This document shows, piece after piece, positions 1 to 13,362 of a DNA stretch of 13,363 bases (positions within the stretch are counted from its first letter, which is position 1; every line of letters starts with the position of its first letter). The notes below the pieces were generated by a model, which saw only the letters and a program-made list of their open reading frames with translations, was not told the origin of the DNA and did no database searches. The DNA is from Thermoproteota archaeon (GTDB lineage Archaea > Asgardarchaeota > Njordarchaeia > Njordarchaeales > Panguiarchaeaceae), in the NCBI GenBank assembly GCA_024720975.1, contig JANJXX010000015.1, forward strand, positions 1 through 13,363. Direction: 5' to 3'. The translations under genes and the position numbers were made by a program.

Positions 1-543
1 CGACCTGCATATCGAGCACTTGGGATCAATTATCTCGAATGATTCATACCATGATCCGCAGACCTCGCAGACGTCGCCATATTGGCCAGGCGCGCCGCAC
101 TTCGGGCATGTGCCGATCACGAACCTATCGGGGAGGAAGATCTCGCAATTCGGGCACCACCACTGCTTGATGGTCTTCGGGTAGATGTATCCCCTCTCCC
201 ACAGCCTAAGATAAAATTCCCTAACGACTTGATAGTGTATGGGCTTGCTGGTCCTAGAGAAGATGTCGAAGCTTATCCCGAGCTTCTCGAAAACCTCCTT
301 CTGAACCGGATAATACATGTCGCAGAGCTCCTTCGGCGTCATCCCCCTCCTCATCGCCTCGATCACTATGCTGCTCGCATTCTCGTCGGTGCCGCAGACA
401 TAGACGACCTCCGCGCCCCTCATCCGCTTAAACCTAGCGAAGATGTCGGCTGGAAGATAAGCTCCAGCCAAGTGACCAAAATGCCTAGGAGCATATGAAT
501 ATGGAAGAGCTGCCGTGACTAATATCTTCTCGATGGATCTCAC
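1..543 (-). CDS. metG: Methionyl-tRNA synthetase, N-terminal part (runs off the left edge; missing from the ORF track)
   Basis: Manual translation from GTG at 543 gives VRSIEKILVTAALPYSYAPRHFGHLAGAYLPADIFARFKRMRGAEVVYVCGTDEN...FDIFSRTS...CPNC..FLPDRFVIGTCPKC...YGDVCEVCG...PKCSIC. It has the TxALPY plus HIGH (HFGH) motif, GTDE, and four CxxC zinc-knuckle motifs typical of archaeal MetRS. The frame is open down to base 1. The start codon is uncertain by a few codons. Confidence 0.95.
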   Translation of the reverse strand, partial: MRSIEKILVTAALPYSYAPRHFGHLAGAYLPADIFARFKRMRGAEVVYVCGTDENASSIVIEAMRRGMTPKELCDMYYPVQKEVFEKLGISFDIFSRTSKPIHYQVVREFYLRLWERGYIYPKTIKQWWCPNCEIFLPDRFVIGTCPKCGAPGQYGDVCEVCGSWYESFEIIDPKCSICRS

Positions 544-713: not shown

Positions 714-1631
714 CTACTTAATCCCCCATAGACTAACTTTAAGCCCGAGAGCCTCAAGTCTTCTCTTCATGATCTTGAGTTTTTCATAATCCGGGTTCTC
801 ATGAAAAGGCATACTATAAGGCATGCCCAGATAGAGGTATTTTTCTGAAACATCATGAAATGGCAACAAGTGTATCTCTTTCAATTCTTTGAGAGATAAA
901 ACTAATGAGATGAATTTCTCGAGATTATCTTCGACATCGGTTATTCTTGGTACCACCGGGAATCTTATTATAATATCTCCTCCCCTACCAGAGTCGATGA
1001 GAAATTTCAAATTTTGAAGTATCAACTTATTTGACACACCGGTATAGAGCTTATGCTCTCTCTCATCAACCAGCTTTATGTCATAGAGAAATAGGTCTAC
1101 AAACTTGGAGATTTTCTGAAAAATCTCCGCCCTAGCATATCCTGATGTCTCAATAGCAGTGTGTACACCCATTTCCTTGCATCTCTTTAACATCTCATGG
1201 AGAAAGCTCGGTTGATATAATGGCTCCCCACCTGAAAATGTCACACCACCTCCGGAGATATTGTAGAAAATGATATCCTTCTTGACTTCCTCAAGTATTT
1301 CATCCACAGTAACTTCTTTACCAATGATCTTGAGAGCGCTGGTTGGACAGGCGTTTACGCATCTTCCGCAAACATTGCATATCTTCCTATCTATAATGTG
1401 CTTATCTTCATTCATCAATTTTATCGCATTCAAGGGGCATGCTTTAACGCAAAGATGACAATGAATACATAGCCGAGCATAATATGCTAGTTGAAGCTCC
1501 TTACTGAGTCCTTCTGGATTCTGACACCACCAGCATCTAAGTGGGCAACCCTTCAGGAATATAAGCGTTCTTATACCAGGTCCATCATATATTGCGAAAC
1601 GCTGTATATCGAAGATTATTCCCTTCTCCAT
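714..1631 (-). CDS. Glycyl-radical enzyme activating enzyme (radical SAM, with 2x[4Fe-4S] ferredoxin-like insert); putative HypD activase
   Basis: N-terminal IQRFAIYDGPGIRT, radical-SAM motif GCPLRCWWCQNPE, insert CIHCHLCVKACP and CNVCGRCVNACP, GGGVTFSGGEP, HTAIETSG. It starts 19 bp after the GRE stop, with an AGGAG RBS-like sequence in the gap. Confidence 0.95.
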   Translation of the reverse strand: MEKGIIFDIQRFAIYDGPGIRTLIFLKGCPLRCWWCQNPEGLSKELQLAYYARLCIHCHLCVKACPLNAIKLMNEDKHIIDRKICNVCGRCVNACPTSALKIIGKEVTVDEILEEVKKDIIFYNISGGGVTFSGGEPLYQPSFLHEMLKRCKEMGVHTAIETSGYARAEIFQKISKFVDLFLYDIKLVDEREHKLYTGVSNKLILQNLKFLIDSGRGGDIIIRFPVVPRITDVEDNLEKFISLVLSLKELKEIHLLPFHDVSEKYLYLGMPYSMPFHENPDYEKLKIMKRRLEALGLKVSLWGIK

Positions 1632-1650
1632 GTGAGATGATTCTCTCCTG

Positions 1651-4086
1651 TTAGAAGGACTTCTTCTCAGTCCTAGCTATGATCTCTTCTTGAAGCGCTT
1701 TAGGCAATCTTATGAAATAATCGCTGTATCCAGCGACCCTAACCATGAGGTCTTGAAAATCTCTTGGCCTCTTCTGAGCCTCTCTCAGCAACTCAGCACT
1801 TATAACATTAAATTGCACATGATGACCACCAAGCCTAAAGAATGCTCTTATTGCTTGAGCAAGCTTTTTCACATTTTCCTCGCTGTCAAAGATTTCGGGA
1901 GATAGCTTCATATTTAATAATGCTCCACCAGTCTTGTCCCAATCACATTTAGCAACGCTCATGAAAGTCGCTATAATTCCTTTCCTATCCATTCCTTGAA
2001 CAGGCGAAATACCCTCGGAGACAGGAGTCCCTCCTCTTCTACCATCAGGAGTTGCTCCCGTAACTTTCCCAAAATAAACATGAACCGTTGTTGGCAACCA
2101 ATATACTCTTCTTGAAGCTTTTCTGATAGGCGAACATGGGTAGCTTTCAACAAGCTTGCTTATTTCATCAACAAGTCTGACCGCGATACTATCCGCCCGA
2201 TCATCGTCATTACCGTATTTAGGCGTTTTATCGGGATTGCGCAGAACTTCAATCATCCACTCGTATCCGTTGAAGTCCTTGCCTAAGGCATCCATGATCT
2301 CATCCATTGTAAATGTCTTCCATTCGAACACATGATATCTAATAGCTGCAAGTGAATCTGCAACCGTCCCGAGACCCACCATCTGTATATATTGAGTGTT
2401 ATACTTTGCTCCACCGGCATTATAGTCCTTCCCCTTCCTAACACAATCTTCTATCCAAAGTGATAGAAAAGGCACTGGTAAGTATTTCGCATAAATCGCC
2501 TCGATGACATCATTCCCTTTAATTTTAATATCTAAGAAATATTTTACTTGCCTCATGAAAGCATTCCATAAATCCTCAAAACTCTTAAAGGATCGTGGAT
2601 CACCCGTCTCTAATCCAATTTTCTTACCTGTCTTGGGATCTACTCCATTATTCAACGTTATTTCCAGTATTTTCGGAAGATTAAAGTAGCCCGTCAAGAT
2701 ATATGCTTCCTTGCCAAATACGCCAGATTCCACGCACCCGCTTACACCCGCTAACCGAGCGTCTTCAAGCTCCTTACCTTGTCTAAGCATTTTTCTAATT
2801 ACGCCATCATGATTGAAAAATGGCGGCTCACCATATCCAGCTGAAGCAATCTTCAAAGCATGTATCAGAAAATGATCTGGTGTTCTCTCACTCACAAGAA
2901 CAGCAAAGTTCGGCTGAAGCGTTCTTAGCTCATCATAAGCCTCCAGAATTAAATACGATAATTCATTAACAGCGCTCGATCCATTCTCTCTCAGCCCCCC
3001 AATGTTTATCTTAGAGAAATCATTATATGTGGCACTTTCTTCATGCGTTACTCCAACTTTTGGTGGAGCTGGCTGGCTTGAAAACTTCAGAAAGAAGCAT
3101 AACAAAAGTTCCTTAGCCTTCTCCCTAGTAAGTCTCCCCTCTTCAATATCTTTTTTATAGAATGGATAAAGCCACATGTCGAGCCTGCCCGGTGTAAAAG
3201 AATCCCATGGATTTGTTTCATACGTTATCCCGACATGTATAAACCAGTAATGCTGAAGTGCCTCCCAGAATGTTCTCGGAGGATGAGCTGGAACCCAGTC
3301 GCATATCTTAGCCATCTGCTTAAGTTCTCTCCTTTTTTCAGGATCTTGTTCATCGTCAGCCATTTTATTAAGTAATTCAGCATATCGTTTAGCATAAATC
3401 AGAATACCATCTGCTACTATATCCATCGCCTTAAGTTCCTCGATTTTCTCAAGATATTCGGGATCACTCGGGTCAAGCTGGGAAATAGTTTCCCTAATTT
3501 CTTTCTTGATATCAAGTACTCCCATCTTAAAGACCCTTTCGCCGCCAGCGGTATGTCCCGGTGCTCTCTGCTCCATAAACTCCGTCCATATCCCAGCTTC
3601 ATACGCATGCTTCCATTTCTCATCCATATTCTCGAAGATAATCTCCCTAATAGTCCTGCCCTTCCAGAATGGGATTATCTCACTCTCGTAAACGCATATG
3701 ATTTCATTGTCCACGCGATACGGCATAACTTCTCTCTCATTCAAAATTTTAAGATCCTCCAAACTATGCAGGGTTATTTCGGGATAGGTTGGGGTCTCAT
3801 TCACACCAGTTCCTCTAATACCAATAATCAGCTGACCCGGTTCAACCGGCAAGCTCACATTCTCCATAAGATACTTGAATGCAAGAGCTCTCTGAACAGG
3901 TACAGACTTACCCCTCCCCAATCCTCGCTTATAAAACTCCGTAATAAGCCTCGCTCTCTCAACGGACAACTTAACCTCACTCTCAACAACAAATTTCCGT
4001 AACCGATCAACCCTCTCATTAAGCGGCTTTACAACACCCCTTCTGCGCGTCAGCTCTTTTAAAATATTTACGTATTGAAAGCTCAT
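1651..4086 (-). CDS. hypD: Glycyl radical enzyme, trans-4-hydroxy-L-proline dehydratase (HypD) family
   Basis: Gly loop RVAG786Y and Cys loop SGC451VE453. HypD-type motifs: TEF170MEQRAPGH178T, NPW294D295SFTPGRLD, QPAPPKVG, ES351ATYND356F357, LTGY467, L664PT666T. These correspond to C. difficile HypD F152/H160/W277/D278/S334/D339/F340/C434/E436/Y450/L643/T645/G765 as recalled. Confidence 0.9.
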   Translation of the reverse strand: MSFQYVNILKELTRRRGVVKPLNERVDRLRKFVVESEVKLSVERARLITEFYKRGLGRGKSVPVQRALAFKYLMENVSLPVEPGQLIIGIRGTGVNETPTYPEITLHSLEDLKILNEREVMPYRVDNEIICVYESEIIPFWKGRTIREIIFENMDEKWKHAYEAGIWTEFMEQRAPGHTAGGERVFKMGVLDIKKEIRETISQLDPSDPEYLEKIEELKAMDIVADGILIYAKRYAELLNKMADDEQDPEKRRELKQMAKICDWVPAHPPRTFWEALQHYWFIHVGITYETNPWDSFTPGRLDMWLYPFYKKDIEEGRLTREKAKELLLCFFLKFSSQPAPPKVGVTHEESATYNDFSKINIGGLRENGSSAVNELSYLILEAYDELRTLQPNFAVLVSERTPDHFLIHALKIASAGYGEPPFFNHDGVIRKMLRQGKELEDARLAGVSGCVESGVFGKEAYILTGYFNLPKILEITLNNGVDPKTGKKIGLETGDPRSFKSFEDLWNAFMRQVKYFLDIKIKGNDVIEAIYAKYLPVPFLSLWIEDCVRKGKDYNAGGAKYNTQYIQMVGLGTVADSLAAIRYHVFEWKTFTMDEIMDALGKDFNGYEWMIEVLRNPDKTPKYGNDDDRADSIAVRLVDEISKLVESYPCSPIRKASRRVYWLPTTVHVYFGKVTGATPDGRRGGTPVSEGISPVQGMDRKGIIATFMSVAKCDWDKTGGALLNMKLSPEIFDSEENVKKLAQAIRAFFRLGGHHVQFNVISAELLREAQKRPRDFQDLMVRVAGYSDYFIRLPKALQEEIIARTEKKSF

Positions 4087-4111
4087 TCCACTTCCCCGTA
4101 TTTTTATTAAA

Positions 4112-4130
4112 TATTTAAGCCTTATCCTTT
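4112..4130 (-). promoter_or_regulatory. Putative archaeal BRE/TATA promoter for hypD and its activase
   Basis: Minus-strand CTTAAATA (4119-4112), preceded by purine-rich AAAGGATAAGG, ends 25 nt upstream of the ATG at 4086. Confidence 0.55.
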
Positions 4131-4151
4131 ACAATTTTTCATTATGCCTTG

Positions 4152-4160
4152 AAAAATAAA
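4152..4160 (-). terminator. Putative oligo-T terminator after the ABC operon
   Basis: Minus-strand TTTATTTTT about 30 nt after the stop of the last ATPase gene and upstream of the hypD TATA box. Confidence 0.4.
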
Positions 4161-4192
4161 GCATCTAAAACATTTACACTTTTATCGTAAAA

Positions 4193-5170
4193 CTACTTAT
4201 GATAAAGCCAACATCTAACTATGCTATTATTCACTATCTTATCTGGTGGTGCTTGAAGCTTACATTTCTCTTCTGCATAGGGACATCTGGACACAAATTT
4301 GCATCCTGTTGCCAAAAACTCTTTTTCCTCAATTTGTGAGAGCCTAATCGGATGCATATAGTATTCTCTTTTTCTTAAATCCAAGGTGGGCAAGGACTCT
4401 AGTAACATTTTCGTGTAAGGGTGTAAAGGCCTCTTTAACACCTCATCAATTGGTCCTCTTTCAAGTATTGTGCCTCTATAGAGTATCGCTATATAATCAC
4501 TTATGTAGTATGATGTTGCTAAATCATGAGTTATATATAAAAATGAGATATTATACTCCTCTTTAACTTGCTTGAAGATGTTAAGTACACTTACTCTAAA
4601 TGATGCATCAAGCATGGAGACAGGTTCGTCCGCGATCATTAGCCTAGGCTTTGTAAGTAACGCCCTTGCTATGGCAACTCTTTGAAGCTCTCCCCCAGAT
4701 AATTCATGCGGATACTTTTCTTTTATATCACTTATCCTTAATCCAACTTCTGCGAGAACATCATCTACCACCTTATTAATCTCAGCTTCTTCTTTGATAT
4801 CAGCCAATGATTTAGCAGTTTCTTGGAAATACGAGTATATTTTTCGCATAGGATTAAATGAAGCAAAAGGATCTTGGAATATTGCTTGAACCTCTTTCCT
4901 AAACCACTTAACTTCAGACTTCTTTAATTCGTATATATTTTTCCCTCTATAGAGAACAATGCCTTCTTCAGGCTTATAAACTCTGAGTATTACCTTCGCT
5001 AAAGTGCTCTTACCGCTACCACTTTCACCCGCCAGAGTACATATTGAAGGCTCTTCACCAAGCTTGAGATTAACTTTATCTAAAGCCTTGAATTCGAAAC
5101 CAAAAAGACCATAACGAAACTTTTTCACAAGATCTTTCACTTCTAAAAGGATTTTTGATCTTTCTATCAT
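4193..5170 (-). CDS. Opp/Dpp-family ABC transporter ATP-binding protein (DppF/OppF-like)
   Basis: Walker A GESGSGKST, Q-loop IFQDP, signature LSGGELQR, Walker B MIADEP, ITHD, HPYT, and a Cys-rich C-terminal oligopeptide-ATPase domain (GCKFVSRC..C...C). GGGTGTGA RBS-like sequence upstream. Confidence 0.95.
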   Translation of the reverse strand: MIERSKILLEVKDLVKKFRYGLFGFEFKALDKVNLKLGEEPSICTLAGESGSGKSTLAKVILRVYKPEEGIVLYRGKNIYELKKSEVKWFRKEVQAIFQDPFASFNPMRKIYSYFQETAKSLADIKEEAEINKVVDDVLAEVGLRISDIKEKYPHELSGGELQRVAIARALLTKPRLMIADEPVSMLDASFRVSVLNIFKQVKEEYNISFLYITHDLATSYYISDYIAILYRGTILERGPIDEVLKRPLHPYTKMLLESLPTLDLRKREYYMHPIRLSQIEEKEFLATGCKFVSRCPYAEEKCKLQAPPDKIVNNSIVRCWLYHK

Positions 5171-5173
5171 ATT

Positions 5174-6163
5174 TCACACCCCACTATAAAGATAACATGA
5201 AACAAAATGTTCTTTGTCTGCTTCCACTAATAATGGAGGCTCGGATTTGCATATCTCTTTCATATATGTGCATCTTGGATGGAATCTGCAACCTTTTGGG
5301 GGGGCTGATAAATCTGGTGGCGATCCACGAATTCCTTGTCGAAGTTCTTTGTCTCCGAGTCTTGGAAGAGAAGCTAGGAGCATCTGCGTATATGGGTGTA
5401 AGGGGTCTTCAAAGAGTTCTTTGGAAGTCGCGATCTCAACAATTTTGCCAGCATACATTATTGCCACCCTATCACATAACATTGCATGTATTGCTAGATC
5501 ATGGGTGACCATTACTATCGTATTTCTCAAGGTCCTCTGACTATTCGCTAGGAGTTGGAGAACTCCTCTTTGCATGACTACATCAAGAGCGGTAGAAGGT
5601 TCATCTGCTAAAATTATTTGCGGTTTTGTAATTAAAGCCAAGGCTATTACAAGTCTTTGTCTCATTCCACCACTCAATTGATGTGGAAAAGCATTTATCA
5701 CGTCTTTTGGAAGCCCAGTTTTATGAAGATAGTCAATAGCCATTTCCATAGCTTCTTTTTTAGCAATATTCATGTGTGCCCTCATTATCTCAACAAAGTT
5801 ATCCTTTATCCTCATAGTGGGATTAAGGACATTCATGGAATTTTGTGGAATCCAAGATATTACCTTCCACCAAACTTTTCTCCTCCTTTCCTCTTCACTT
5901 AAGGATAAAATGCTGACTTTTTCATCTTTAAGTGGTAATATCACTGAACCTTGTTTTACAATTAGTGGAGGTCTAAGGTAACCATAAATAATTTTAAGTA
6001 AAGTTGATTTACCACAACCTGATTCACCAGCAATTCCAAAGATTTCATTTCTTCTTATCAAAAGGCTAACATCGTTTACAGCATCAACATACTTTGATCC
6101 ATTATATTTAACGAAATATCCTCCAAAAATGTTGTTAATAATTAATGCCGCATCCTGGCTCAT
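5174..6163 (-). CDS. Opp/Dpp-family ABC transporter ATP-binding protein (DppD/OppD-like); start revised to ATG at 6163 (MSQDAA...)
   Basis: GESGCGKST, LSGGMRQR, ILADEP, VTHD, HPYT, GCRFHPRC. The track start at 6316 overlaps the permease by 151 nt. The ATG at 6163 lies 2 nt past the permease TAA and has GAGGTG upstream. Confidence 0.93.
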   Translation of the reverse strand: MSQDAALIINNIFGGYFVKYNGSKYVDAVNDVSLLIRRNEIFGIAGESGCGKSTLLKIIYGYLRPPLIVKQGSVILPLKDEKVSILSLSEEERRRKVWWKVISWIPQNSMNVLNPTMRIKDNFVEIMRAHMNIAKKEAMEMAIDYLHKTGLPKDVINAFPHQLSGGMRQRLVIALALITKPQIILADEPSTALDVVMQRGVLQLLANSQRTLRNTIVMVTHDLAIHAMLCDRVAIMYAGKIVEIATSKELFEDPLHPYTQMLLASLPRLGDKELRQGIRGSPPDLSAPPKGCRFHPRCTYMKEICKSEPPLLVEADKEHFVSCYLYSGV

Positions 6164-6165
6164 TT

Positions 6166-7059
6166 TTACCTTCCACCTCTTAATCTCGGATTCAAGTACT
6201 CCTGGAGTCCCGCGGAGATCAAGTATAATGCAATGAAGAGAAAGATTAATGTCATTACCGGCGGCAATACCCACCACCACATATTGCGTAACATAGCTCC
6301 GTATCTCTGGATCCAATAAATCATAGTTCCCAGAGTATCTATTTCAAGTATTGATAATCCTAGAAATGCAAGACCTACTTCGGCACCTATTGCTCCAAGC
6401 ATAGTATTTATTATGTTGGTTAGATGGAATCCTAAAATATGTGGAAAAATTTCTAAAAAGATAATTTTTAAAGTAGACATACCTGATAGCTGAGCGGAAG
6501 TTATGAAATCTTTTTCTTTTATGCTTAAAGCCATGGCTCTTATCATTCTTGACGACCATGGCCATGAGATTATTGAAATTATGATGCCAATGATGATCAG
6601 ATTAACTATGGGTTTCAATATCATAACAAGCATTATGGTAAGCGGTAGTCCCGGTATAGCTATAAATGCATCAGTAATGAACATAACAGTTTTATCTACT
6701 GCACCGCCTTTCATACCGGCTATCAATCCAAATACTAATCCAATATGACATGCTATCATTGCTGTCACAAAGGCTATTATAAGCGAGTTCATGATTGCGT
6801 GAGTTAAGACCCAGAAGACGCTACGCCCGTCAGCAGTGGTTCCGAAAATAAGATCTATTGACTCAAATTTTGGCTGCATTCCCGTTGGCAGGTAGTAAAG
6901 ATAACTGTAGTAAGGAGGTGAAAAATTGGATGCTAATCCTAAGGCAAGGATTGCTAAAAAAAGAATGAAGCCTATTCTAAACTTTTTACTGAATTTAAGA
7001 ACTCTTTTTAGAATACCGAATATTCGCAAAGATTTAGATAGTGCTTTTTGTAGGGTCAT
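6166..7059 (-). CDS. Opp/Dpp-family ABC transporter permease (DppC/OppC-like)
   Basis: FGTTADGRSVF motif, several hydrophobic segments, EAA-like loop (KEKDFITSAQLSG), LAFLGL, WWWVLPP, terminal NPRLR. GGTGA RBS upstream of the ATG. Confidence 0.93.
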   Translation of the reverse strand: MTLQKALSKSLRIFGILKRVLKFSKKFRIGFILFLAILALGLASNFSPPYYSYLYYLPTGMQPKFESIDLIFGTTADGRSVFWVLTHAIMNSLIIAFVTAMIACHIGLVFGLIAGMKGGAVDKTVMFITDAFIAIPGLPLTIMLVMILKPIVNLIIIGIIISIISWPWSSRMIRAMALSIKEKDFITSAQLSGMSTLKIIFLEIFPHILGFHLTNIINTMLGAIGAEVGLAFLGLSILEIDTLGTMIYWIQRYGAMLRNMWWWVLPPVMTLIFLFIALYLISAGLQEYLNPRLRGGR

Positions 7060-7065
7060 TCACCA

Positions 7066-8082
7066 TCACCCATATCTCACTCTGGGATCCATGAGCGGGT
7101 ATATCAAGTCGAGAATGTATGCTGCTACTGCGACACCTATTATTGATAAGGATACTATTCCTAAAACTAGCGGATAATCTCCGGCATTGACAGCTTGGTA
7201 AAGAAGTTGTCCAAGTCCCGGGTAATTAAAGAGCATTTCAGTTAGTAGTGCTCCACCGAATATCCCTCCCAAATTTAAGCTAAGGGCAGTGATCTGAGGC
7301 ATCATTATATTTTTTAGCATATATTTTCTTAAGAGCAATCTTTTAGGCAATCCTTGTATCTCGCCATAATAGTAGTAATCCTCAGATAAAATGTTTAATG
7401 CGAGTGCTCTAGAACTTAAAAACCACCATCCAAGTGCACCAGGTATTATTATTGAAAGAGCTGGCAATGTCATAGCTTGAAAGATTGCTGAGAGAAATTC
7501 AAGTGAGAATATGTTCTCTGGGATCCGTACTGGAGCTAAGGAGAATAATGGTATGATATAAGCGAATAGATAAGTGAGAACTATAGCAAAAACATAATAT
7601 GGAATTGGATAAAGTGTGACCGCTATAGCTTGCAGAGTTTTTGACATTTTCGATCCTTCGAAAAGGGAGGCTATAGCCCCCATAATATTACCAAGGATCC
7701 AGGCAATAACTATTGAAAACGCTAGGAGAGTTGTTGTCCATGGTAGCCTATAGGAAATTATCTCTCTTACTGTCGTTGGTCTTGCAAGAATTGAGATACC
7801 AAAGTCTAATGTTAGAAACCTTCTCAAGAAACCTAAATATTGCTCCAAGAGAGAGCCTTTAAGTCCGAATAGCTCATAATACATGTCATACATTCTTTGA
7901 ACGGCTTCGGGGTCTCCAAGTGCTGCTCCAGTAACAGCCATACTCCTCGCCACCATATTCTTGACGATATCTACTGGTAATGCTTTTAGCATGAGGAATG
8001 TGAGGGTGAAGGCCATTAAGATGGTTGCAATTAACAATAACGTTCTATATAGAATGTATCTCATGAAGGGTTTGAACGACAT
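7066..8082 (-). CDS. Opp/Dpp-family ABC transporter permease (DppB/OppB-like)
   Basis: N-terminal RYILYR, DFGIS, LPWT, EAA-like loop SEDYYYYGEIQGL, EMLFNYPGLG, DYP, terminal DPRVR. Confidence 0.93.
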   Translation of the reverse strand: MSFKPFMRYILYRTLLLIATILMAFTLTFLMLKALPVDIVKNMVARSMAVTGAALGDPEAVQRMYDMYYELFGLKGSLLEQYLGFLRRFLTLDFGISILARPTTVREIISYRLPWTTTLLAFSIVIAWILGNIMGAIASLFEGSKMSKTLQAIAVTLYPIPYYVFAIVLTYLFAYIIPLFSLAPVRIPENIFSLEFLSAIFQAMTLPALSIIIPGALGWWFLSSRALALNILSEDYYYYGEIQGLPKRLLLRKYMLKNIMMPQITALSLNLGGIFGGALLTEMLFNYPGLGQLLYQAVNAGDYPLVLGIVSLSIIGVAVAAYILDLIYPLMDPRVRYG

Positions 8083-8094
8083 TCTTACAACACT

Positions 8095-8106
8095 AAAAAT
8101 AAAAAA
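8095..8106 (-). terminator. Putative internal oligo-T terminator/attenuator between the binding-protein gene and the permeases
   Basis: Minus-strand TTTTTTATTTTT in the 37-bp gap just after the SBP stop codon. Confidence 0.5.
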
Positions 8107-8119
8107 GTATGGGGATTAA

Positions 8120-10465
8120 TTAACTCTTCGCAACCGTTTTCTTCCGCGCCCGAAGAACGTAGCCTATCGCTACCCCCACTATTAGTATCATTATGGAGAG
8201 CACCGTTACTAATGTCCAATCAATAGTTGGTACCTCCACCTTGGTGGTAACGATTGATGTAACAATCCTGATTTCAGCAGTCGTTACTGTAACTGGCACA
8301 GACGTCGTTACCGTAACGGTGGTAGCCATAACGGTAGGAGTAACAGTAATAGTGGGAGTAGGTGTTGTTATTGTAACAGTAGGTGTTGGTGGAGCTGTTG
8401 GCGGCGTTTCTGAGACAAGTGGTTTAAATTCTACGGTTATCTGTTTCGGTATTTTAGCAGGTTCTGAGGCAGCATCCTTTATCGGGCATCTACCTGAAGG
8501 TTTCACGCCTAGTATAGTGAACAAGAATGATGAGCAATATGGCTTAGGCTCGGCATATCTGTTAGTCAGAGTAGGCCATCCTTCCCAACAGTAGCTATTC
8601 GCCACCATATATCTAGCTGGTGAGAACACCGTTATCCAGAACCTATACTTCAGATGGATCTTTAACAGCTCCTTGACAATGTCAACTATACTCGGGTCCC
8701 ATGGTGGAGTGTTTATGTATTGCTCGACAAGCCTATCAAGTTTCTCCCTGTCCGGGAAGACTGTTTTAGCTACTTCAATGTTCTTCCTCACATCTTCTGG
8801 TATTCTCTCAGGTGGCAAGCCATAGCACATTATATAGCCTACCCAAGGAAGCCTAGCTCCAGGAACGCATTGACCGCTATGCCATTCCCTAGGAGATTCC
8901 CACCAGTCAAGAGTTGGGAATCCTCCACCTGGCCATTCAAATGCTACATCCCATGTATGACTGTAAACTCTATCCCAATATGCTTCTAAAGCCTCAAGCT
9001 TAACCTCTATTCCAAATCTTCTCCACTGATCGGCAACAATCGTGACTAGTGGGAAGGAGAACTCCGCTCCAGGTAATGATATTAAGTTAACTTCGAATAA
9101 TCTACCATCTGGCATTCTCCATTTTCCATCAGGTCCTTTGTAAAATCCAACAGCCTGTAAAAGTTTTGTCGCTCTTTCAGGATCATACTTAAACCATGTT
9201 ATTTCCGGATCTAAACCTAGTATCTTCAGATAGTTTTGTATCTCTTTTGGCGGCGAATCATCCAAATTATACTTCTTTAGTTCATCTTTAAGTCCTTGAA
9301 CATAAAGTTGCTCTAATGGATAAAATCTTGAAACTGGAAGCGGGTTAGGGACTGCGGATGACCCATCTGGGGTCTTGTATGCGCCGAAGATCACGCGATA
9401 ATCTATAGCATAGGTTAAAGCCCAGCGAACTTCGGTTAAATTGAATGGATACTTCAATATATTAAACACTAGCTCTCTAGTTCCTTCATCCCTTGTCCAG
9501 GCCCATGGGAAGTTTCTTCCATTCCATGCCAATGCATATGTATTTCTCTCCATTATAACTCCCACATATTCTGATGTGAATTCTGTGAAATCTAGCTCAT
9601 TATTTGTCATAGAAATGACTGATCTTTCTTGACCTCCTAAAGCGATAAAAAGTAAATACTTTGGAGAGGGTTTTATGCCTAATAATTTGGCTCCCCACCA
9701 ATTCTCAAGCCTCTCCCAAAGGTACCATTTTCCATGCGGATCGGCATCAATCAACTTATAGGGACCAAGACATACTGGTGGATAGAAGTTATATTTCACC
9801 GGATCTTTGACGGTCTCGAATACATGCTTTGGTATAACATAAAAGTTAACGGGCCATCCATAATGTCTCATAGTCCATTCATAATGGTAATACGGGTTAG
9901 GCTTCTTTAGACGTATCTCAACAGTATAGTCATCCAATTTTTTGACAGATTCCACCTGACCTGTAACTCTTACATTACATAATCCTAGCTCAGGATGGTC
10001 TCTACAATACTCTATTGTAAAGACGAGGTCATCGGCGGTAAATGGATGTCCGTCACTCCATGTTATGCCTTTCCTAAGTACAATCCACAATGTTCTATAA
10101 TCTGGGGAGTATATTGGTGGCTTTTCAGCAAGCCATAAAATTAGCCTTCCATCTGTGAGATTCATAAACCATAGAGGGCCTCCGCATGCTGTTTGCAAGA
10201 AGCCTGTACAAGCTGTAGCCCACCCAACTACATAGTAATTGAATTGATAGGGGTCTGGTCCCCATCCTCCGGGGCAGACAACACCATTCTCTATAACGAG
10301 TACATCGCCTCTAGGTATCCCAGGGGGTAATGGTAATTGTGGTGTTGCGCTTACCACGTTCATCGGTGTAGTAACTACTAATGCTGATAATAATGCTATA
10401 AACAGCAGAGCTTTAATAATTAATCCGTAAGATCTGCTGGCTTTTTTCTTTTTTTCTCTTAGCAT
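8120..10465 (-). CDS. ABC transporter extracellular solute-binding protein, family 5 (oligopeptide/oligosaccharide type), with signal peptide, Thr/Pro/Val-rich linker and C-terminal membrane anchor
   Basis: Basic N-region (KKKK), hydrophobic stretch and VSA cleavage-like site. Family-5 motifs LRKGITWSDGHPFTADDLVFT, GPYKL, VRWALTYAID, YDPERATKLL. C-terminal TM segment followed by basic tail RARKK. Confidence 0.92.
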   Translation of the reverse strand: MLREKKKKASRSYGLIIKALLFIALLSALVVTTPMNVVSATPQLPLPPGIPRGDVLVIENGVVCPGGWGPDPYQFNYYVVGWATACTGFLQTACGGPLWFMNLTDGRLILWLAEKPPIYSPDYRTLWIVLRKGITWSDGHPFTADDLVFTIEYCRDHPELGLCNVRVTGQVESVKKLDDYTVEIRLKKPNPYYHYEWTMRHYGWPVNFYVIPKHVFETVKDPVKYNFYPPVCLGPYKLIDADPHGKWYLWERLENWWGAKLLGIKPSPKYLLFIALGGQERSVISMTNNELDFTEFTSEYVGVIMERNTYALAWNGRNFPWAWTRDEGTRELVFNILKYPFNLTEVRWALTYAIDYRVIFGAYKTPDGSSAVPNPLPVSRFYPLEQLYVQGLKDELKKYNLDDSPPKEIQNYLKILGLDPEITWFKYDPERATKLLQAVGFYKGPDGKWRMPDGRLFEVNLISLPGAEFSFPLVTIVADQWRRFGIEVKLEALEAYWDRVYSHTWDVAFEWPGGGFPTLDWWESPREWHSGQCVPGARLPWVGYIMCYGLPPERIPEDVRKNIEVAKTVFPDREKLDRLVEQYINTPPWDPSIVDIVKELLKIHLKYRFWITVFSPARYMVANSYCWEGWPTLTNRYAEPKPYCSSFLFTILGVKPSGRCPIKDAASEPAKIPKQITVEFKPLVSETPPTAPPTPTVTITTPTPTITVTPTVMATTVTVTTSVPVTVTTAEIRIVTSIVTTKVEVPTIDWTLVTVLSIMILIVGVAIGYVLRARKKTVAKS
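8226..8410 (-). repeat. Low-complexity Thr/Pro/Val-rich linker coding region within the SBP
   Basis: ETPPTAPPTPTVTITTPTPTITVTPTVMATTVTVTTSVPVTVTT...VTTKVEVPT, with imperfect TVT/TPT repeats. Confidence 0.8.
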
Positions 10466-10487
10466 GTTAAAATTTTTCTCATTCTCA

Positions 10488-10531
10488 TATTTAAGTTTAA
10501 CCTAGTAGAAAAATAGGAAAATACTTAAGTA
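10488..10531. promoter_or_regulatory. Back-to-back archaeal TATA boxes for the ABC operon (-) and the GH127 gene (+)
   Basis: CTTAAATA (minus, 10495-10488) ends 22 nt before the SBP ATG. CTTAAGTA (plus, 10524-10531, preceded by GGAAAATA) ends 22 nt before the GH127 ATG. Neither gene has an RBS, which fits leaderless mRNAs. Confidence 0.65.
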
Positions 10532-10553
10532 GTTTTTACCTTAAGAGTTTTGC

Positions 10554-12542
10554 ATGACGACTAATGTTGTTGATGTTAGTAGGAGCCCCCATGCATCGCT
10601 AAGGCCTGTTCCTATCGAGAATGTTAAGCTTGAAGGAGGGTTTATGGGTAGATGGTTAACAGTTGTTGCTGAGAAAGCTATTCCTCATCAGTATAAGATG
10701 CTGGAGGAACATGAACGGCTTGATAGGTTTAGGTGGGCGTCAGGGAAGATTAGTAGGAAGCCGAAAACTTCTTTCTATCCATTCGATGACACTGATGTGT
10801 ATAAATGGCTTGAAGCTTGTGGGTACGTCCTTGCTTGGCCTGATCTGGAGGAGTCTAAGTCTAGGGAGTTACGGGGTCTTGTTAAGCAAGTGATTGATGA
10901 AGTTGTTGCAGCACAGGACTCTGATGGCTACCTTTTCACGGAGCATAAGGGGCGTGAAGGTGAGAGGTGGAAGAGCCTTACCTTTGACCATGAATTATAT
11001 TGTGCAGGACACTTAATTCAAGCAGCGATAGCTCTTCACCGCTCCATAAACGAGGAAAAGTTGTTTAATGCCGCGAGGGGATTTGCCGACCTAATAGCCA
11101 ATACATTCAATCCTGAGGGTATCAGAGGTGTTCCAGGCCACCCCGAAGTTGAGATGGCTTTGGTCGAATTATATAGAGAGACTAATGATAGGGCTTATCT
11201 AAATACCGCGGCGTTTTTCATAAATGAGAGAGGGAAGGGTTTACTGGAGGTAAAGGGTTCCCCGACTTTTCTCGAGTCTGCGGAATACATGATGTACCAT
11301 GTCCTTGGAGGCTTGGAATACTTCATAGATCATAAACCTATCAGAGAATTAACGGAGATCGTCGGCCATGCCGTTAGATCTCTTTACTTGAATTGTGGTG
11401 TAACGGACTTATACATGGAGACTGGCGAGCAGGCTTTACTCGATGTAATGAATAGGCTTTGGGAAGATTTCGTCTATAGGAAGATGTATGTGACTGGTGC
11501 TGCTGGCTCTAGATATATTAGTGAATCATTTGGAGATCGGTATGAGCTTCCTAATGAACGGGCTTACGCAGAAACGTGTGCTGCTATAGCAAACTTCATG
11601 TGGAATTGGAGAATGTTTCTCGCAACCGGTAACGCGAAGCATGTTGATGTAATGGAATCAACATTCTATAATGCGATACTATCTGGAATATCTCTGGACG
11701 GCACCAAATACTTTTACATGAATCCGTTAGCCGTATTCAAGGAGTATACTAGGGAGCCATGGTTCCAATGCGCATGTTGTCCACCAAATGTTGCAAGGCT
11801 AATAGCTTCTCTTCCAGGATATTTCTACTGTGTTGTTGATGATGGAATATATGTTAACCTATACAATAGCAGTAGGGCTAGGGTAAGTTATAGGGAGATG
11901 GAATTGGAGATTGTTCAAGAGACAAAATATCCGTGGAATGGAGAAGTGAAGTTAACGCTTCACATGCCGGAACCTCTTTCCTTCAAGATATATCTTAGAA
12001 TTCCGGGATGGTGTGATGGGGCTGTTGTAAATGTAGATGGTAGAATTTTCAAGCCTAAGTCGTCTACATATCTGCCGATTATGAGGAAGTGGAAAGATGG
12101 AGATGTGATTAAGGTCGCATTCCCGATGCCGGTGAAGCTTACAGCTTCCCACCCGTACGTTAGGAACAACATCTCCCAGGTTGCCATAAAGCGGGGGCCG
12201 ATAGTTTATTGCCTTGAAGAGATCGACAATCCCGTGGATATAAGAAACATCGTGTTAAGTGATGACATAAGGTTTACTGCAAAATATAGGGGAGATTTGC
12301 TGGATGGCGTAGTAGTGGTTGCTGGAAACGCATACTATGTTAAGGAGTGGGGAGAGAATTACCCATTATACTTCCCCATCGAGAAGTTGCAGGTTAGAGC
12401 TAGGCGGATCAGGTTAACGGCGATACCCTATTACGCATGGGCAAATAGGAAACCAGGCAAGATGATGATTTGGATACCATTAGCTGAGTGGCTCAAAATA
12501 AGGAGGAAGCCTTCAAAGAGATCGAAGCAGAGGAGGAAATAG
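10554..12542 (+). CDS. Glycoside hydrolase family 127 (DUF1680), HypBA1-like non-reducing-end beta-L-arabinofuranosidase, cytoplasmic
   Basis: DTDVYKWLEA, H146ELYCAGH, GH196PEVE, GH272AVR, SE324SFG, YAE340TC342A, YFYMNPL, CAC408C409PPN, YPW, LRIPGW, RGPIVYC, AIPYYAWANR. These match B. longum HypBA1 E322 (acid/base), E338/C340/C418 (Zn ligands) and C417 (nucleophile) as recalled. No signal peptide. Confidence 0.92.
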   Translation: MTTNVVDVSRSPHASLRPVPIENVKLEGGFMGRWLTVVAEKAIPHQYKMLEEHERLDRFRWASGKISRKPKTSFYPFDDTDVYKWLEACGYVLAWPDLEESKSRELRGLVKQVIDEVVAAQDSDGYLFTEHKGREGERWKSLTFDHELYCAGHLIQAAIALHRSINEEKLFNAARGFADLIANTFNPEGIRGVPGHPEVEMALVELYRETNDRAYLNTAAFFINERGKGLLEVKGSPTFLESAEYMMYHVLGGLEYFIDHKPIRELTEIVGHAVRSLYLNCGVTDLYMETGEQALLDVMNRLWEDFVYRKMYVTGAAGSRYISESFGDRYELPNERAYAETCAAIANFMWNWRMFLATGNAKHVDVMESTFYNAILSGISLDGTKYFYMNPLAVFKEYTREPWFQCACCPPNVARLIASLPGYFYCVVDDGIYVNLYNSSRARVSYREMELEIVQETKYPWNGEVKLTLHMPEPLSFKIYLRIPGWCDGAVVNVDGRIFKPKSSTYLPIMRKWKDGDVIKVAFPMPVKLTASHPYVRNNISQVAIKRGPIVYCLEEIDNPVDIRNIVLSDDIRFTAKYRGDLLDGVVVVAGNAYYVKEWGENYPLYFPIEKLQVRARRIRLTAIPYYAWANRKPGKMMIWIPLAEWLKIRRKPSKRSKQRRK

Positions 12543-12681: not shown

Positions 12682-13362
12682 TCAGCTTCCTGTCTTCGGA
12701 TACTCCACCTCAACTACTGATAGATTTATTTTGAGCGGTCTTTTACCGAGAACCTCCGCTATATTGGGCTCCGTTCTCCCCTCATCGCCGTCTATAAGCT
12801 CCTTTATGTAGAGCCCTCCCTGAGCCTTGATCTTGAACTTGATGACGCGGTCGCCGAGTTTCTCGGCCTCGACGTAGTAGACCTTCTTCTGCCTAATCTT
12901 GTCCGCTCTTCTCCTTAAAACCCTCCTCGGCGTCCGCTGGTTCACCACTATGTCCCTGAACTTCTCCTCTACGAGCTTCAGCGCCCCCTCATCCACGTCG
13001 CCATCGAGCTCGACTATGGCCTCATAGGTTTTGGAGGCGATCGGGGAGAGGCTCTTCAGCAACCTCAGCTCCCTCCTGCTGGAATACTCCAGGCCCGAGA
13101 TCTCGACCTTGCCCCGCGCGCCCTCATTCACCGCCCTCTCCAGCATCGCCAGATCCACGAATCTTCTTCTGGGGTGCTTTAGCTCCAAGATGAACGGCCT
13201 GCCTGTTCCGGTAACAGTCGCGTCCACGTCTTCCCTGCCGGCGCCGTGAAACTTGTAGCTCAGCGCTTCGAAGATCTTGAGAGCCGGCTCGCCTATCAGC
13301 TCGCTGACAGACTCGGGGTACTCCCTGCCCGTGTAGTTGCATTTCTCGCATCCGCGGCCCCA
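12682..13362 (-). CDS. pus10: tRNA pseudouridine(54/55) synthase Pus10, C-terminal part (5' end beyond the right edge)
   Basis: The frame is open to the window edge: WGRGCEKCNYTGREYPESVSELI...KFHGAGREDVDA..GTGRPF...QRTPRRV..RRAD..R...GGLYIKELIDGDEGRTEP. The track start at 13227 is an internal GTG inside the catalytic motif. Confidence 0.95.
   Translation of the reverse strand, partial: WGRGCEKCNYTGREYPESVSELIGEPALKIFEALSYKFHGAGREDVDATVTGTGRPFILELKHPRRRFVDLAMLERAVNEGARGKVEISGLEYSSRRELRLLKSLSPIASKTYEAIVELDGDVDEGALKLVEEKFRDIVVNQRTPRRVLRRRADKIRQKKVYYVEAEKLGDRVIKFKIKAQGGLYIKELIDGDEGRTEPNIAEVLGKRPLKINLSVVEVEYPKTGS

Follow-up and report, generated by a model that had tools for sequence, protein, structure and literature searches.

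Why should a glycoside hydrolase of family 127 (GH127), a family-5 ATP-binding cassette (ABC) importer and a glycyl radical enzyme acting on hydroxyproline stand side by side in a hot-spring archaeon? The block that raises this question occupies most of contig JANJXX010000015.1 (assembly GCA_024720975.1; contig C6 below), which belongs to a 1.36-Mb metagenome-assembled genome (MAG) and was analyzed over its entire 13,363 bp, hereafter the window. An original prediction, made from the letters alone, had listed a GH127, a complete family-5 importer, a glycyl radical enzyme of the HypD type (HypD being the dehydratase of trans-4-hydroxy-L-proline, here called Hyp) and its activase. Scanning the window for open reading frames (ORFs) and domain profiles, we found eight intact genes between a truncated metG and a truncated archaeal pus10, with every member of the predicted set at the position given for it; the clustering is thus confirmed. 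We consider the block to be a composite catabolic locus for beta-L-arabinofuranosylated Hyp, a reading to which we assign a probability of about 0.6. In plants and green algae, this linkage, beta-L-arabinofuranosyl-Hyp, is typical of hydroxyproline-rich glycoproteins (HRGPs) of the extensin type.

The first step is to ask whether the radical enzyme is a HypD. It carries PFL-like and Gly_radical domains and matches the HypD of Clostridioides difficile (CdHypD; 6vxc) with 902 bits over residues 21–808, against 466 bits for the next solved family. With the HypD model NF043068, it scores 1089.3, 11 below the equivalog cut-off of 1100, and the next family reaches 621 bits. The residues of HypD responsible for Hyp binding and acid–base chemistry were defined by Backman et al. 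(PMC7077986). In the alignment to 6vxc, numbered after correction for the 20-residue tag on the PDB chain, every one of them is conserved: F170, R174, H178, W294, D295, K343, and S351 align with CdHypD F152, R156, H160, W277, D278, K326, and S334, and D356, F357, C451, E453, Y467, T666, and G786 with D339, F340, C434, E436, Y450, T645, and G765. The HypD-specific residues His160, Asp278, Asp339, Ser334, Phe340, Tyr450, and Thr645 are among them (H178, D295, D356, S351, F357, Y467, and T666). G786 lies within the glycyl radical motif RVAGYS, and the Cys-loop C-x-E is C451-V452-E453. These features suggest that the enzyme is a HypD and make it a candidate for the dehydration of Hyp to pyrroline-5-carboxylate (P5C). 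A dedicated radical S-adenosylmethionine (SAM) activase adjoins it, its gene starting 19 nt past the hypD stop codon. The activase matches TIGR02494 with 359 bits and NF043069 with 351 bits, under the cut-off of 425 of the latter; its translation contains CPLRCWWC (CX3CX2C) and two ferredoxin-type CxxCxxCxxxCP clusters. As a substrate, HypD requires free Hyp (PMC7077986).

The GH127 has the catalytic, middle, and C-terminal domains PF07944, PF20736, and PF20737. Its best full-length match among PDB entries is the GH127 beta-L-arabinofuranosidase of Geobacillus (4qjy, 482 bits), and HypBA1 of Bifidobacterium longum (3wkw) is matched with 349 bits. E324, E340, C342, C408, and C409 align with HypBA1 E322, E338, C340, C417, and C418, and the corresponding roles are kept: acid/base Glu322 is E324, the nucleophile Cys417 is C408, and the zinc ligands Glu338, Cys340, and Cys418 are E340, C342, and C409. 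No signal peptide was found in the protein, which should therefore be cytoplasmic. Members of the family hydrolyze Ara-Hyp, and the enzyme of the window may likewise cleave the arabinofuranosyl (Araf)-Hyp bond. It ends in a Lys/Arg-rich tail of ~17 residues (KIRRKPSKRSKQRRK; window 12480–12542); its relatives are shorter (646–648 aa) and, judged by length, probably lack the tail.

The importer is complete, with a solute-binding protein (SBP) of the SBP_bac_5 family, two BPD_transp_1 permeases, and two ATPases with oligo_HPY domains. The SBP has a signal/anchor at its N-terminus and a membrane anchor at its C-terminus, and it contains a linker rich in Thr and Pro. Its top solved relatives are mannoside and cellobiose binders of Thermotoga and a chitin-oligosaccharide binder of Vibrio (E values of 1e-27 to 1e-19). 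The best annotated peptide binders reach about 1e-12, NikA 4e-9 to 5e-10, and AppA 5e-8. By similarity, the SBP thus appears to belong to a sugar-binding subgroup, nearer to oligosaccharide than to peptide or nickel binders. All homologues found at 73% identity or more (73–84%) lie within an SBP5-ABC operon adjoining a GH127. Homologues at 30–46% identity have no consistent neighborhood (e.g., GH3 and an acetylxylan esterase), and the transfer of a specificity from them was rejected. We infer that the ligand would be Hyp-arabinosides rather than beta-arabino-oligosaccharides.

Are these genes organized as a unit? Neighboring genes overlap or are 3–37 nt apart; the exceptions are 106 nt ahead of hypD and an 88-bp start-to-start region between the SBP gene and the divergent GH127 gene. 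An independent 2018 data set yielded a 6,387-bp contig corresponding to window 3828–10214 with two differences; as it spans the hypD/ABC junction, this junction is no assembly artefact. The window contains exactly two copies of the 9-mer CTTAAATAT, of which one lies 22 nt upstream of the ATG of the SBP gene and the other 25 nt upstream of that of hypD. There are 33 copies in the 1.36-Mb assembly, which corresponds to 0.3 expected per window. GH127 is preceded by CTTAAGTA at a similar distance. The near-identical TATA boxes reported earlier are partly confirmed, being identical before the SBP and hypD genes and of another form before GH127; a TATA-like element does not prove co-regulation, which may be presumed for the GH127, ABC, and hypD units. 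It is plausible that the 106-nt spacer, with its TATA-like element, contains an internal promoter serving hypD and the activase gene. A scan for sigma-70 promoters and terminators was set aside as not meaningful for an archaeon. Metatranscriptome contigs (X18) cover the SBP gene and parts of hypD with 90–99% identity; such contigs cannot give transcript levels or operon structure, and the missing cover of GH127 is uninformative.

As to the host, the MAG holding the window is assigned to the Asgard archaea. However, the methionyl-tRNA synthetase (MetRS) fragment of the window shares 79% identity with its counterpart in Aigarchaeota archaeon SKYB24 but only 30–36% with those of the MAG's same-genus genomes, and the MAG has its own complete MetRS on the 410-kb contig C11 (145418–146494), 68–81% identical to the same-genus proteins. 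From these two observations, we take contig C6 to be mis-binned and its host to be an Aigarchaeota-like hot-spring archaeon. HypD (80%) and the SBP (77–84%) are likewise nearest to SKYB24, and the window Pus10 has no match in the same-genus genomes at 1e-10. The mis-binning was exposed by the failure of a test for metG/pus10 synteny in the same-genus genomes. It renders moot both the search for proC in the holding MAG, where none was found above the cut-off, and an M24 peptidase on MAG contig C2; same-phylum Asgard HypD loci (52–56% identity), which have an activase and no GH127, became uninformative as well. Another, small contig of the bin, C13 (L099 1–6492), encodes a CUT1 ABC system, a GH51 alpha-L-arabinofuranosidase, and part of a second DNA ligase. 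This ligase fragment shares 78% identity with the enzyme of SKYB24, and the GC content of the contig is 0.438 versus 0.40 for the MAG; C13 is probably from the same Aigarchaeota-like organism and mis-binned too.

The locus was found in hot-spring metagenomes of at least six studies. In two hot-spring runs (X8 and X9), the metG and pus10 flanks are covered at 100–240x and the island between them at 3–5x, and the high-depth contigs stop at the borders of the island (window ~459–510 and ~12746). The contrast in depth and the contig ends suggest that the block, which lies between metG and pus10, is an island that varies among strains.

Does GH127 accompany hypD elsewhere? We surveyed the 80 nearest HypD loci (78 species-representative genomes) of thermophilic or halophilic archaea and bacteria, at 59–80% identity. 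In four of these loci, from a Desulfurococcaceae archaeon (L033), two Thermotogota (L065 and L085), and an Atribacterota member (L074), a GH127 gene occurs no more than 10 kb from hypD. According to whole-genome searches, only six of the 78 genomes encode any GH127. It is located 1–6 kb from hypD in four (G056, G088, G097, and G107) and 13.7 kb from it, on the same contig, in the Aigarchaeota relative G041. In the sixth, G042, the two genes are unlinked; its hypD contig is short, nearly the same as that of the Aigarchaeota relative, and probably mis-binned in G042. The chance of finding a single-copy gene within 10 kb of hypD in a genome of 1.3–2.3 Mb is about 1–1.5%. Among 151 Thermotogota genomes, 33 encode HypD, 41 GH127, and seven both; in six of these seven, GH127 is at most 3 kb upstream of hypD and on the same strand.

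Phylogenies of the two enzymes tell how often the link arose. In the GH127 tree, the archaeal linked copies belong to one 27-member clade (SH-aLRT 96) and the bacterial linked copies to a separate, fully supported clade, with the unlinked second copies of the same bacteria elsewhere. In the HypD tree, the window, SKYB24, and L019 form a group that is sister to a Desulfurococcaceae/Sulfolobales pair, and L074, L065, and L085 form a clade of their own. This separation of archaeal and bacterial pairs in both trees indicates at least two independent origins of the GH127-hypD link. Each time, the linkage survived transfer between phyla. Co-location in independent lineages, which the original prediction proposed to look for, is thus observed in Thermotogota and Atribacterota among the bacteria and, among the archaea, in a member of the Desulfurococcaceae and, with three arrangements, in Aigarchaeota. 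L019 (JAOACC010000086.1, "bacterium SKW194") encodes a HypD almost identical to that of SKYB24 (tree distance of 0.0013) and is probably an archaeal contig in a bacterial MAG.

The contents of the linked loci give a clue to the substrate. In the four annotated bacterial loci, the order is GH127, Xaa-Pro peptidase (M24), HypD, and activase. The cultured Pseudothermotoga sp. U03pept carries eight genes (SBP1, SBP1, permease, permease, GH127, M24, HypD, and activase) that overlap or are separated by 16-nt gaps and form one tight operon, with GH10 and GH51 downstream. L065 has the same core together with GH51 and an ABC system of family 5, with 33% identity between its SBP and that of the window, and L074 encodes a permease, GH127, M24, HypD, and activase. 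The Desulfurococcaceae locus comprises GH127, a prolyl-oligopeptidase fragment, M24 directly upstream of HypD, activase, two permeases, and GH51. The M24 proteins of the linked loci are of the Xaa-Pro dipeptidase and aminopeptidase P types, and in several of these loci a GH51 alpha-L-arabinofuranosidase is encoded as well. The peptidase and the GH51 alike are in keeping with glycopeptides of the extensin type, whose glycan is alpha-Araf-(1,3)-[beta-Araf-(1,2)]2-beta-Araf-Hyp (PMC6085000). Conversion of an extensin glycopeptide into arabinose and P5C requires alpha- and beta-arabinofuranosidases, an X-Pro/Hyp peptidase, and HypD. A proC gene is present in all five linked genomes tested, G041 included, elsewhere in the genome.

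The three Aigarchaeota arrangements use three different GH127 sub-clades. Metagenome contigs L104–L106 have the gene order of the window, with a GH127 99% and a HypD 96% identical to those of the window. In addition, the interval from the last ATPase gene to hypD, which in the window is the 106-bp spacer, holds another GH127 gene in these contigs (51% identical); it is divergent from hypD and 167 bp from it. In SKYB24, hypD and the activase gene come only after an SBP5-ABC-GH127 module, GH31, another Opp system, a racemase, and a hydantoinase/oxoprolinase pair, in this order. The genes directly upstream of hypD-activase there (L018 5120–9810) encode an Asp/Glu/hydantoin racemase and hydantoinase/oxoprolinase A and B. 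By opening the ring of a cyclic amide, for instance, this set could supply the metabolism of Hyp or proline along a second route. Among loci without GH127, several have M24-like tblastn matches near hypD and several others Opp-type ABC genes (L023, L027, L034, L048, L052, L055, L062, L129, L150, and L172). Peptide-derived Hyp may be the commoner feed for this HypD clade.

How does the locus relate to characterized systems? The B. longum cluster BLLJ_0208–0213 (SBP, two transmembrane domain proteins, HypBA1 of GH127, HypBA2 of GH121, and HypAA of GH43), like the window, couples an ABC importer to a cytoplasmic GH127, and the two GH127 share the same catalytic Glu and Cys/Zn residues. It targets the Hyp-linked beta-L-arabinofuranosides of extensins, as is proposed for the window. 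In contrast, its SBP is of the CUT1 sugar type, whereas that of the window is of family 5 (Opp-type). The window has no GH121 or GH43, all eight complete ORFs belonging to other families, and the enzyme found on C13, a contig probably of the same organism, is a GH51 and not a GH43. The B. longum system uses the arabinose only and has no HypD, whereas the locus described here continues into Hyp catabolism. Compared with hypD, hypD-AE, and proC of C. difficile (6VXC/6VXE), the window HypD orthologue keeps all mapped substrate and catalytic residues and has its activase adjacent. However, proC adjoins hypD in C. difficile and not in the window, and the C. difficile genes serve a Stickland-type proline reduction, whereas those of the window are from an archaeal thermophile and coupled to a glycosidase and an importer. 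XeHypBA1 of Xanthomonas euvesicatoria, compared here by its description only, is a GH127 that prefers Ara-Hyp and shows that the family can specialize for the Araf-Hyp bond, the step needed here. Unlike the cytoplasmic GH127 of the window, it is extracellular, comes from a pathogen of plants, and is unconnected with Hyp catabolism. A further parallel is the Thermotogota/Atribacterota operon, which likewise combines GH127, HypD-activase, and an ABC importer, with GH51 nearby, in thermophilic anaerobes. It differs by a CUT1-type transporter and by the additional Xaa-Pro peptidase between GH127 and HypD, and its GH127 and HypD belong to other clades than those of the window, in line with an independent origin.

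The original prediction knew of no described locus coupling GH127 and HypD, and we found none either. In the open literature, to which the search was confined, no paper joins HypD or hydroxyproline dehydratase with GH127 or arabinofuranosidase, and none joins Aigarchaeota with hydroxyproline. As far as this literature shows, the GH127-M24-HypD-activase operon of Thermotogota and Atribacterota is undescribed. The locus of the window is an undescribed combination of known enzymes.

We propose the following scheme. The membrane-anchored family-5 SBP would capture a small arabinofuranoside for import by the Opp-type ABC system; Araf(1-3)-Hyp and short glycopeptides are the likeliest ligands. In the cytoplasm, GH127 would strip the beta-L-arabinofuranose units and expose the free 4-OH of Hyp. 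HypD, activated by the radical-SAM activase, would then dehydrate Hyp to P5C. P5C would presumably be reduced to proline by ProC or enter glutamate metabolism, and arabinose would provide an extra carbon source. A stronger version, in which the SBP is a dedicated Hyp-O-arabinoside receptor, binding amino acids or dipeptides in glycosylated form, and import, GH127, and HypD constitute a closed pathway in Aigarchaeota, Desulfurococcaceae, Thermotogota, and Atribacterota alike, is tentative and, in our judgment, somewhat doubtful. If true, it would mean that anaerobic thermophiles live on the alkali- and heat-stable Hyp-arabinoside residue of plant or algal wall glycoproteins in hot springs, and it would explain by what means organisms with HypD gain free Hyp from the glycoproteins of plants.

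Several observations weigh against such a coupled pathway. The presence of HypD and that of GH127 are uncorrelated across the 151 Thermotogota genomes (seven with both vs. nine expected), so that only their physical linkage is non-random, and ~95% of HypD loci have no GH127. Clearly, each enzyme also works alone, and the coupling is facultative. The window contains neither a prolidase gene nor proC. The closest relatives of its GH127 (~60% identity) stand among housekeeping genes in other Aigarchaeota, without ABC or HypD genes, and one of these genomes lacks HypD. In G041, the nearest genome, the 13.7 kb that separate the ABC-GH127 module from hypD leave the latter flanked by other Opp systems, a racemase, and hydantoinase/oxoprolinase genes. 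The original prediction had named, as the outcome that would speak against it, modules carried independently with no recurrent linkage; some close relatives do carry the modules separately, and the linkage recurs. Specificities vary inside the GH127 family, in which sequence is no guide to them and which also includes aceric acid hydrolase (e.g., BT1003) and, we presume, 3,6-anhydrogalactosidase. The bond cleaved by the GH127 and the ligand of the SBP are both parts of the proposed pathway that we infer, whereas comparative genomics bears out its other part, the functional coupling of GH127 and HypD, which appears well supported.

A serious rival, which we nevertheless hold to be unlikely, is that two parallel branches act on the same polymer: the importer and GH127 would process beta-L-arabino-oligosaccharides (beta-Ara2) for their sugar, and HypD would use Hyp from separate peptides. 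Clustering would then reflect shared HRGP degradation, and the product of GH127 would not be the substrate of HypD. The B. longum precedent, with its cluster SBP-TMD-TMD-HypBA1, does import beta-Ara2 and not Hyp-arabinosides (PMC7263609). The Thermotogota operons share the order SBP-permease-permease-GH127 before M24-HypD-activase, the window SBP is nearest to oligosaccharide binders, and hypD is often flanked by Opp-type ABC systems without GH127. On the other side, O-arabinosylation affects most of the Hyp in extensins. Such Hyp is unusable by HypD until the last Araf is removed, and the cytoplasmic GH127 is the only candidate enzyme for this step in the loci. Moreover, with M24 located between GH127 and HypD in a translationally coupled operon, one glycopeptide substrate is a better fit than two separate substrates. 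We regard as quite improbable that an arabinoside uptake unit and a dehydratase of free or peptide Hyp were merely joined by chance in a flexible nutrient-uptake island of Aigarchaeota, with no functional link. The strain variability of the island (flanks at 100–240x, island at 3–5x), the interposition of other transporters and a GH31 between the modules of G041, the stand-alone GH127 relatives, and the uncorrelated presence of the two enzymes in Thermotogota would be compatible with this. On the other hand, the genes are adjacent in 10 of ~13 genomes having both, the link has at least two independent origins, the bacterial operon is tight and on one strand, and a sister strain has a second GH127 divergent from hypD. 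Very improbable, finally, is a GH127 of different specificity, in which case the glycoside imported and cleaved would be some other beta-L-furanoside (of aceric acid or a microbial glycan, for example) and Hyp would be unrelated to it. It is true that aceric acid hydrolase (NF049879) is the only NCBIfam match of the enzyme and that its catalytic-core segment is closest to BT1003 (6ex6) among solved structures, with which it shares a short loop before the Cys-Cys motif. However, the score with NF049879 is 484 bits, half of the family cut-off (950), the best full-length match is the Geobacillus beta-L-arabinofuranosidase, and GH51 alpha-L-arabinofuranosidases accompany linked loci.

HypD, which is sensitive to oxygen, is among the most abundant glycyl radical enzymes in anaerobes. 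Under the preferred reading of a composite locus for arabinosylated Hyp, the repeatedly evolved GH127-hypD linkage is a concrete candidate for the missing Hyp-release step, joined in bacteria by the Xaa-Pro peptidase in one operon. It bridges the de-arabinosylation of HRGPs and the radical dehydration of Hyp, which the searched literature treats separately. The discoverers of HypD, who also reported archaeal HypDs, had offered the speculation that organisms with HypD are fed by HRGPs; in their words, the enzymes for the release were an open challenge (PMC6219649). For hot-spring Aigarchaeota, the locus would add a niche on plant or algal detritus, and its recurrence in unrelated heat-loving bacteria points to an undescribed route for feeding on plant or algal wall glycoprotein. 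The tight operon of the cultured Pseudothermotoga makes the link directly testable. The features of the window are listed in table 1.

Table 1. Genes and regulatory regions of the 13,363-bp window
Feature	Position	Strand	Evidence or remark
Methionyl-tRNA synthetase gene (metG), 5' part, flank	1..543	-	79% identical to MetRS of Aigarchaeota archaeon SKYB24
Glycyl radical enzyme activase, HypD-AE type radical SAM	714..1631	-	TIGR02494, NF043069
Trans-4-hydroxy-L-proline dehydratase (HypD) candidate	1651..4086	-	NF043068, 6vxc, residue alignment
Intergenic spacer, TATA-like CTTAAATAT at 4111-4119	4087..4192	-	Likely internal promoter, hypD + activase
OppF/DppF-type ABC ATPase	4193..5170	-	ABC_tran + oligo_HPY
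OppD/DppD-type ABC ATPase	5174..6316 as listed ORF	-	ABC_tran + oligo_HPY
OppC-like ABC permease	6166..7059	-	BPD_transp_1
OppB-like ABC permease	7066..8082	-	BPD_transp_1
Family-5 solute-binding protein (SBP), sugar-binding subgroup (predicted)	8120..10465	-	SBP_bac_5
Divergent promoter region: CTTAAATAT at 10487-10495 (-) for SBP operon, CTTAAGTA for GH127	10466..10553		
GH127 beta-L-arabinofuranosidase-family enzyme, cytoplasmic (predicted)	10554..12542	+	Three GH127 Pfam domains
Archaeal Pus10 gene, 3' part, flank	12682..13362	-	TIGR01213, 269 bits

Scans of the window for tRNA genes and Rfam families gave no match. The listed ORF of the OppD/DppD-type ATPase overlaps the upstream permease gene by 150 nt, and its orthologues are 330–331 aa long. 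Its true start is therefore probably near position 6166.

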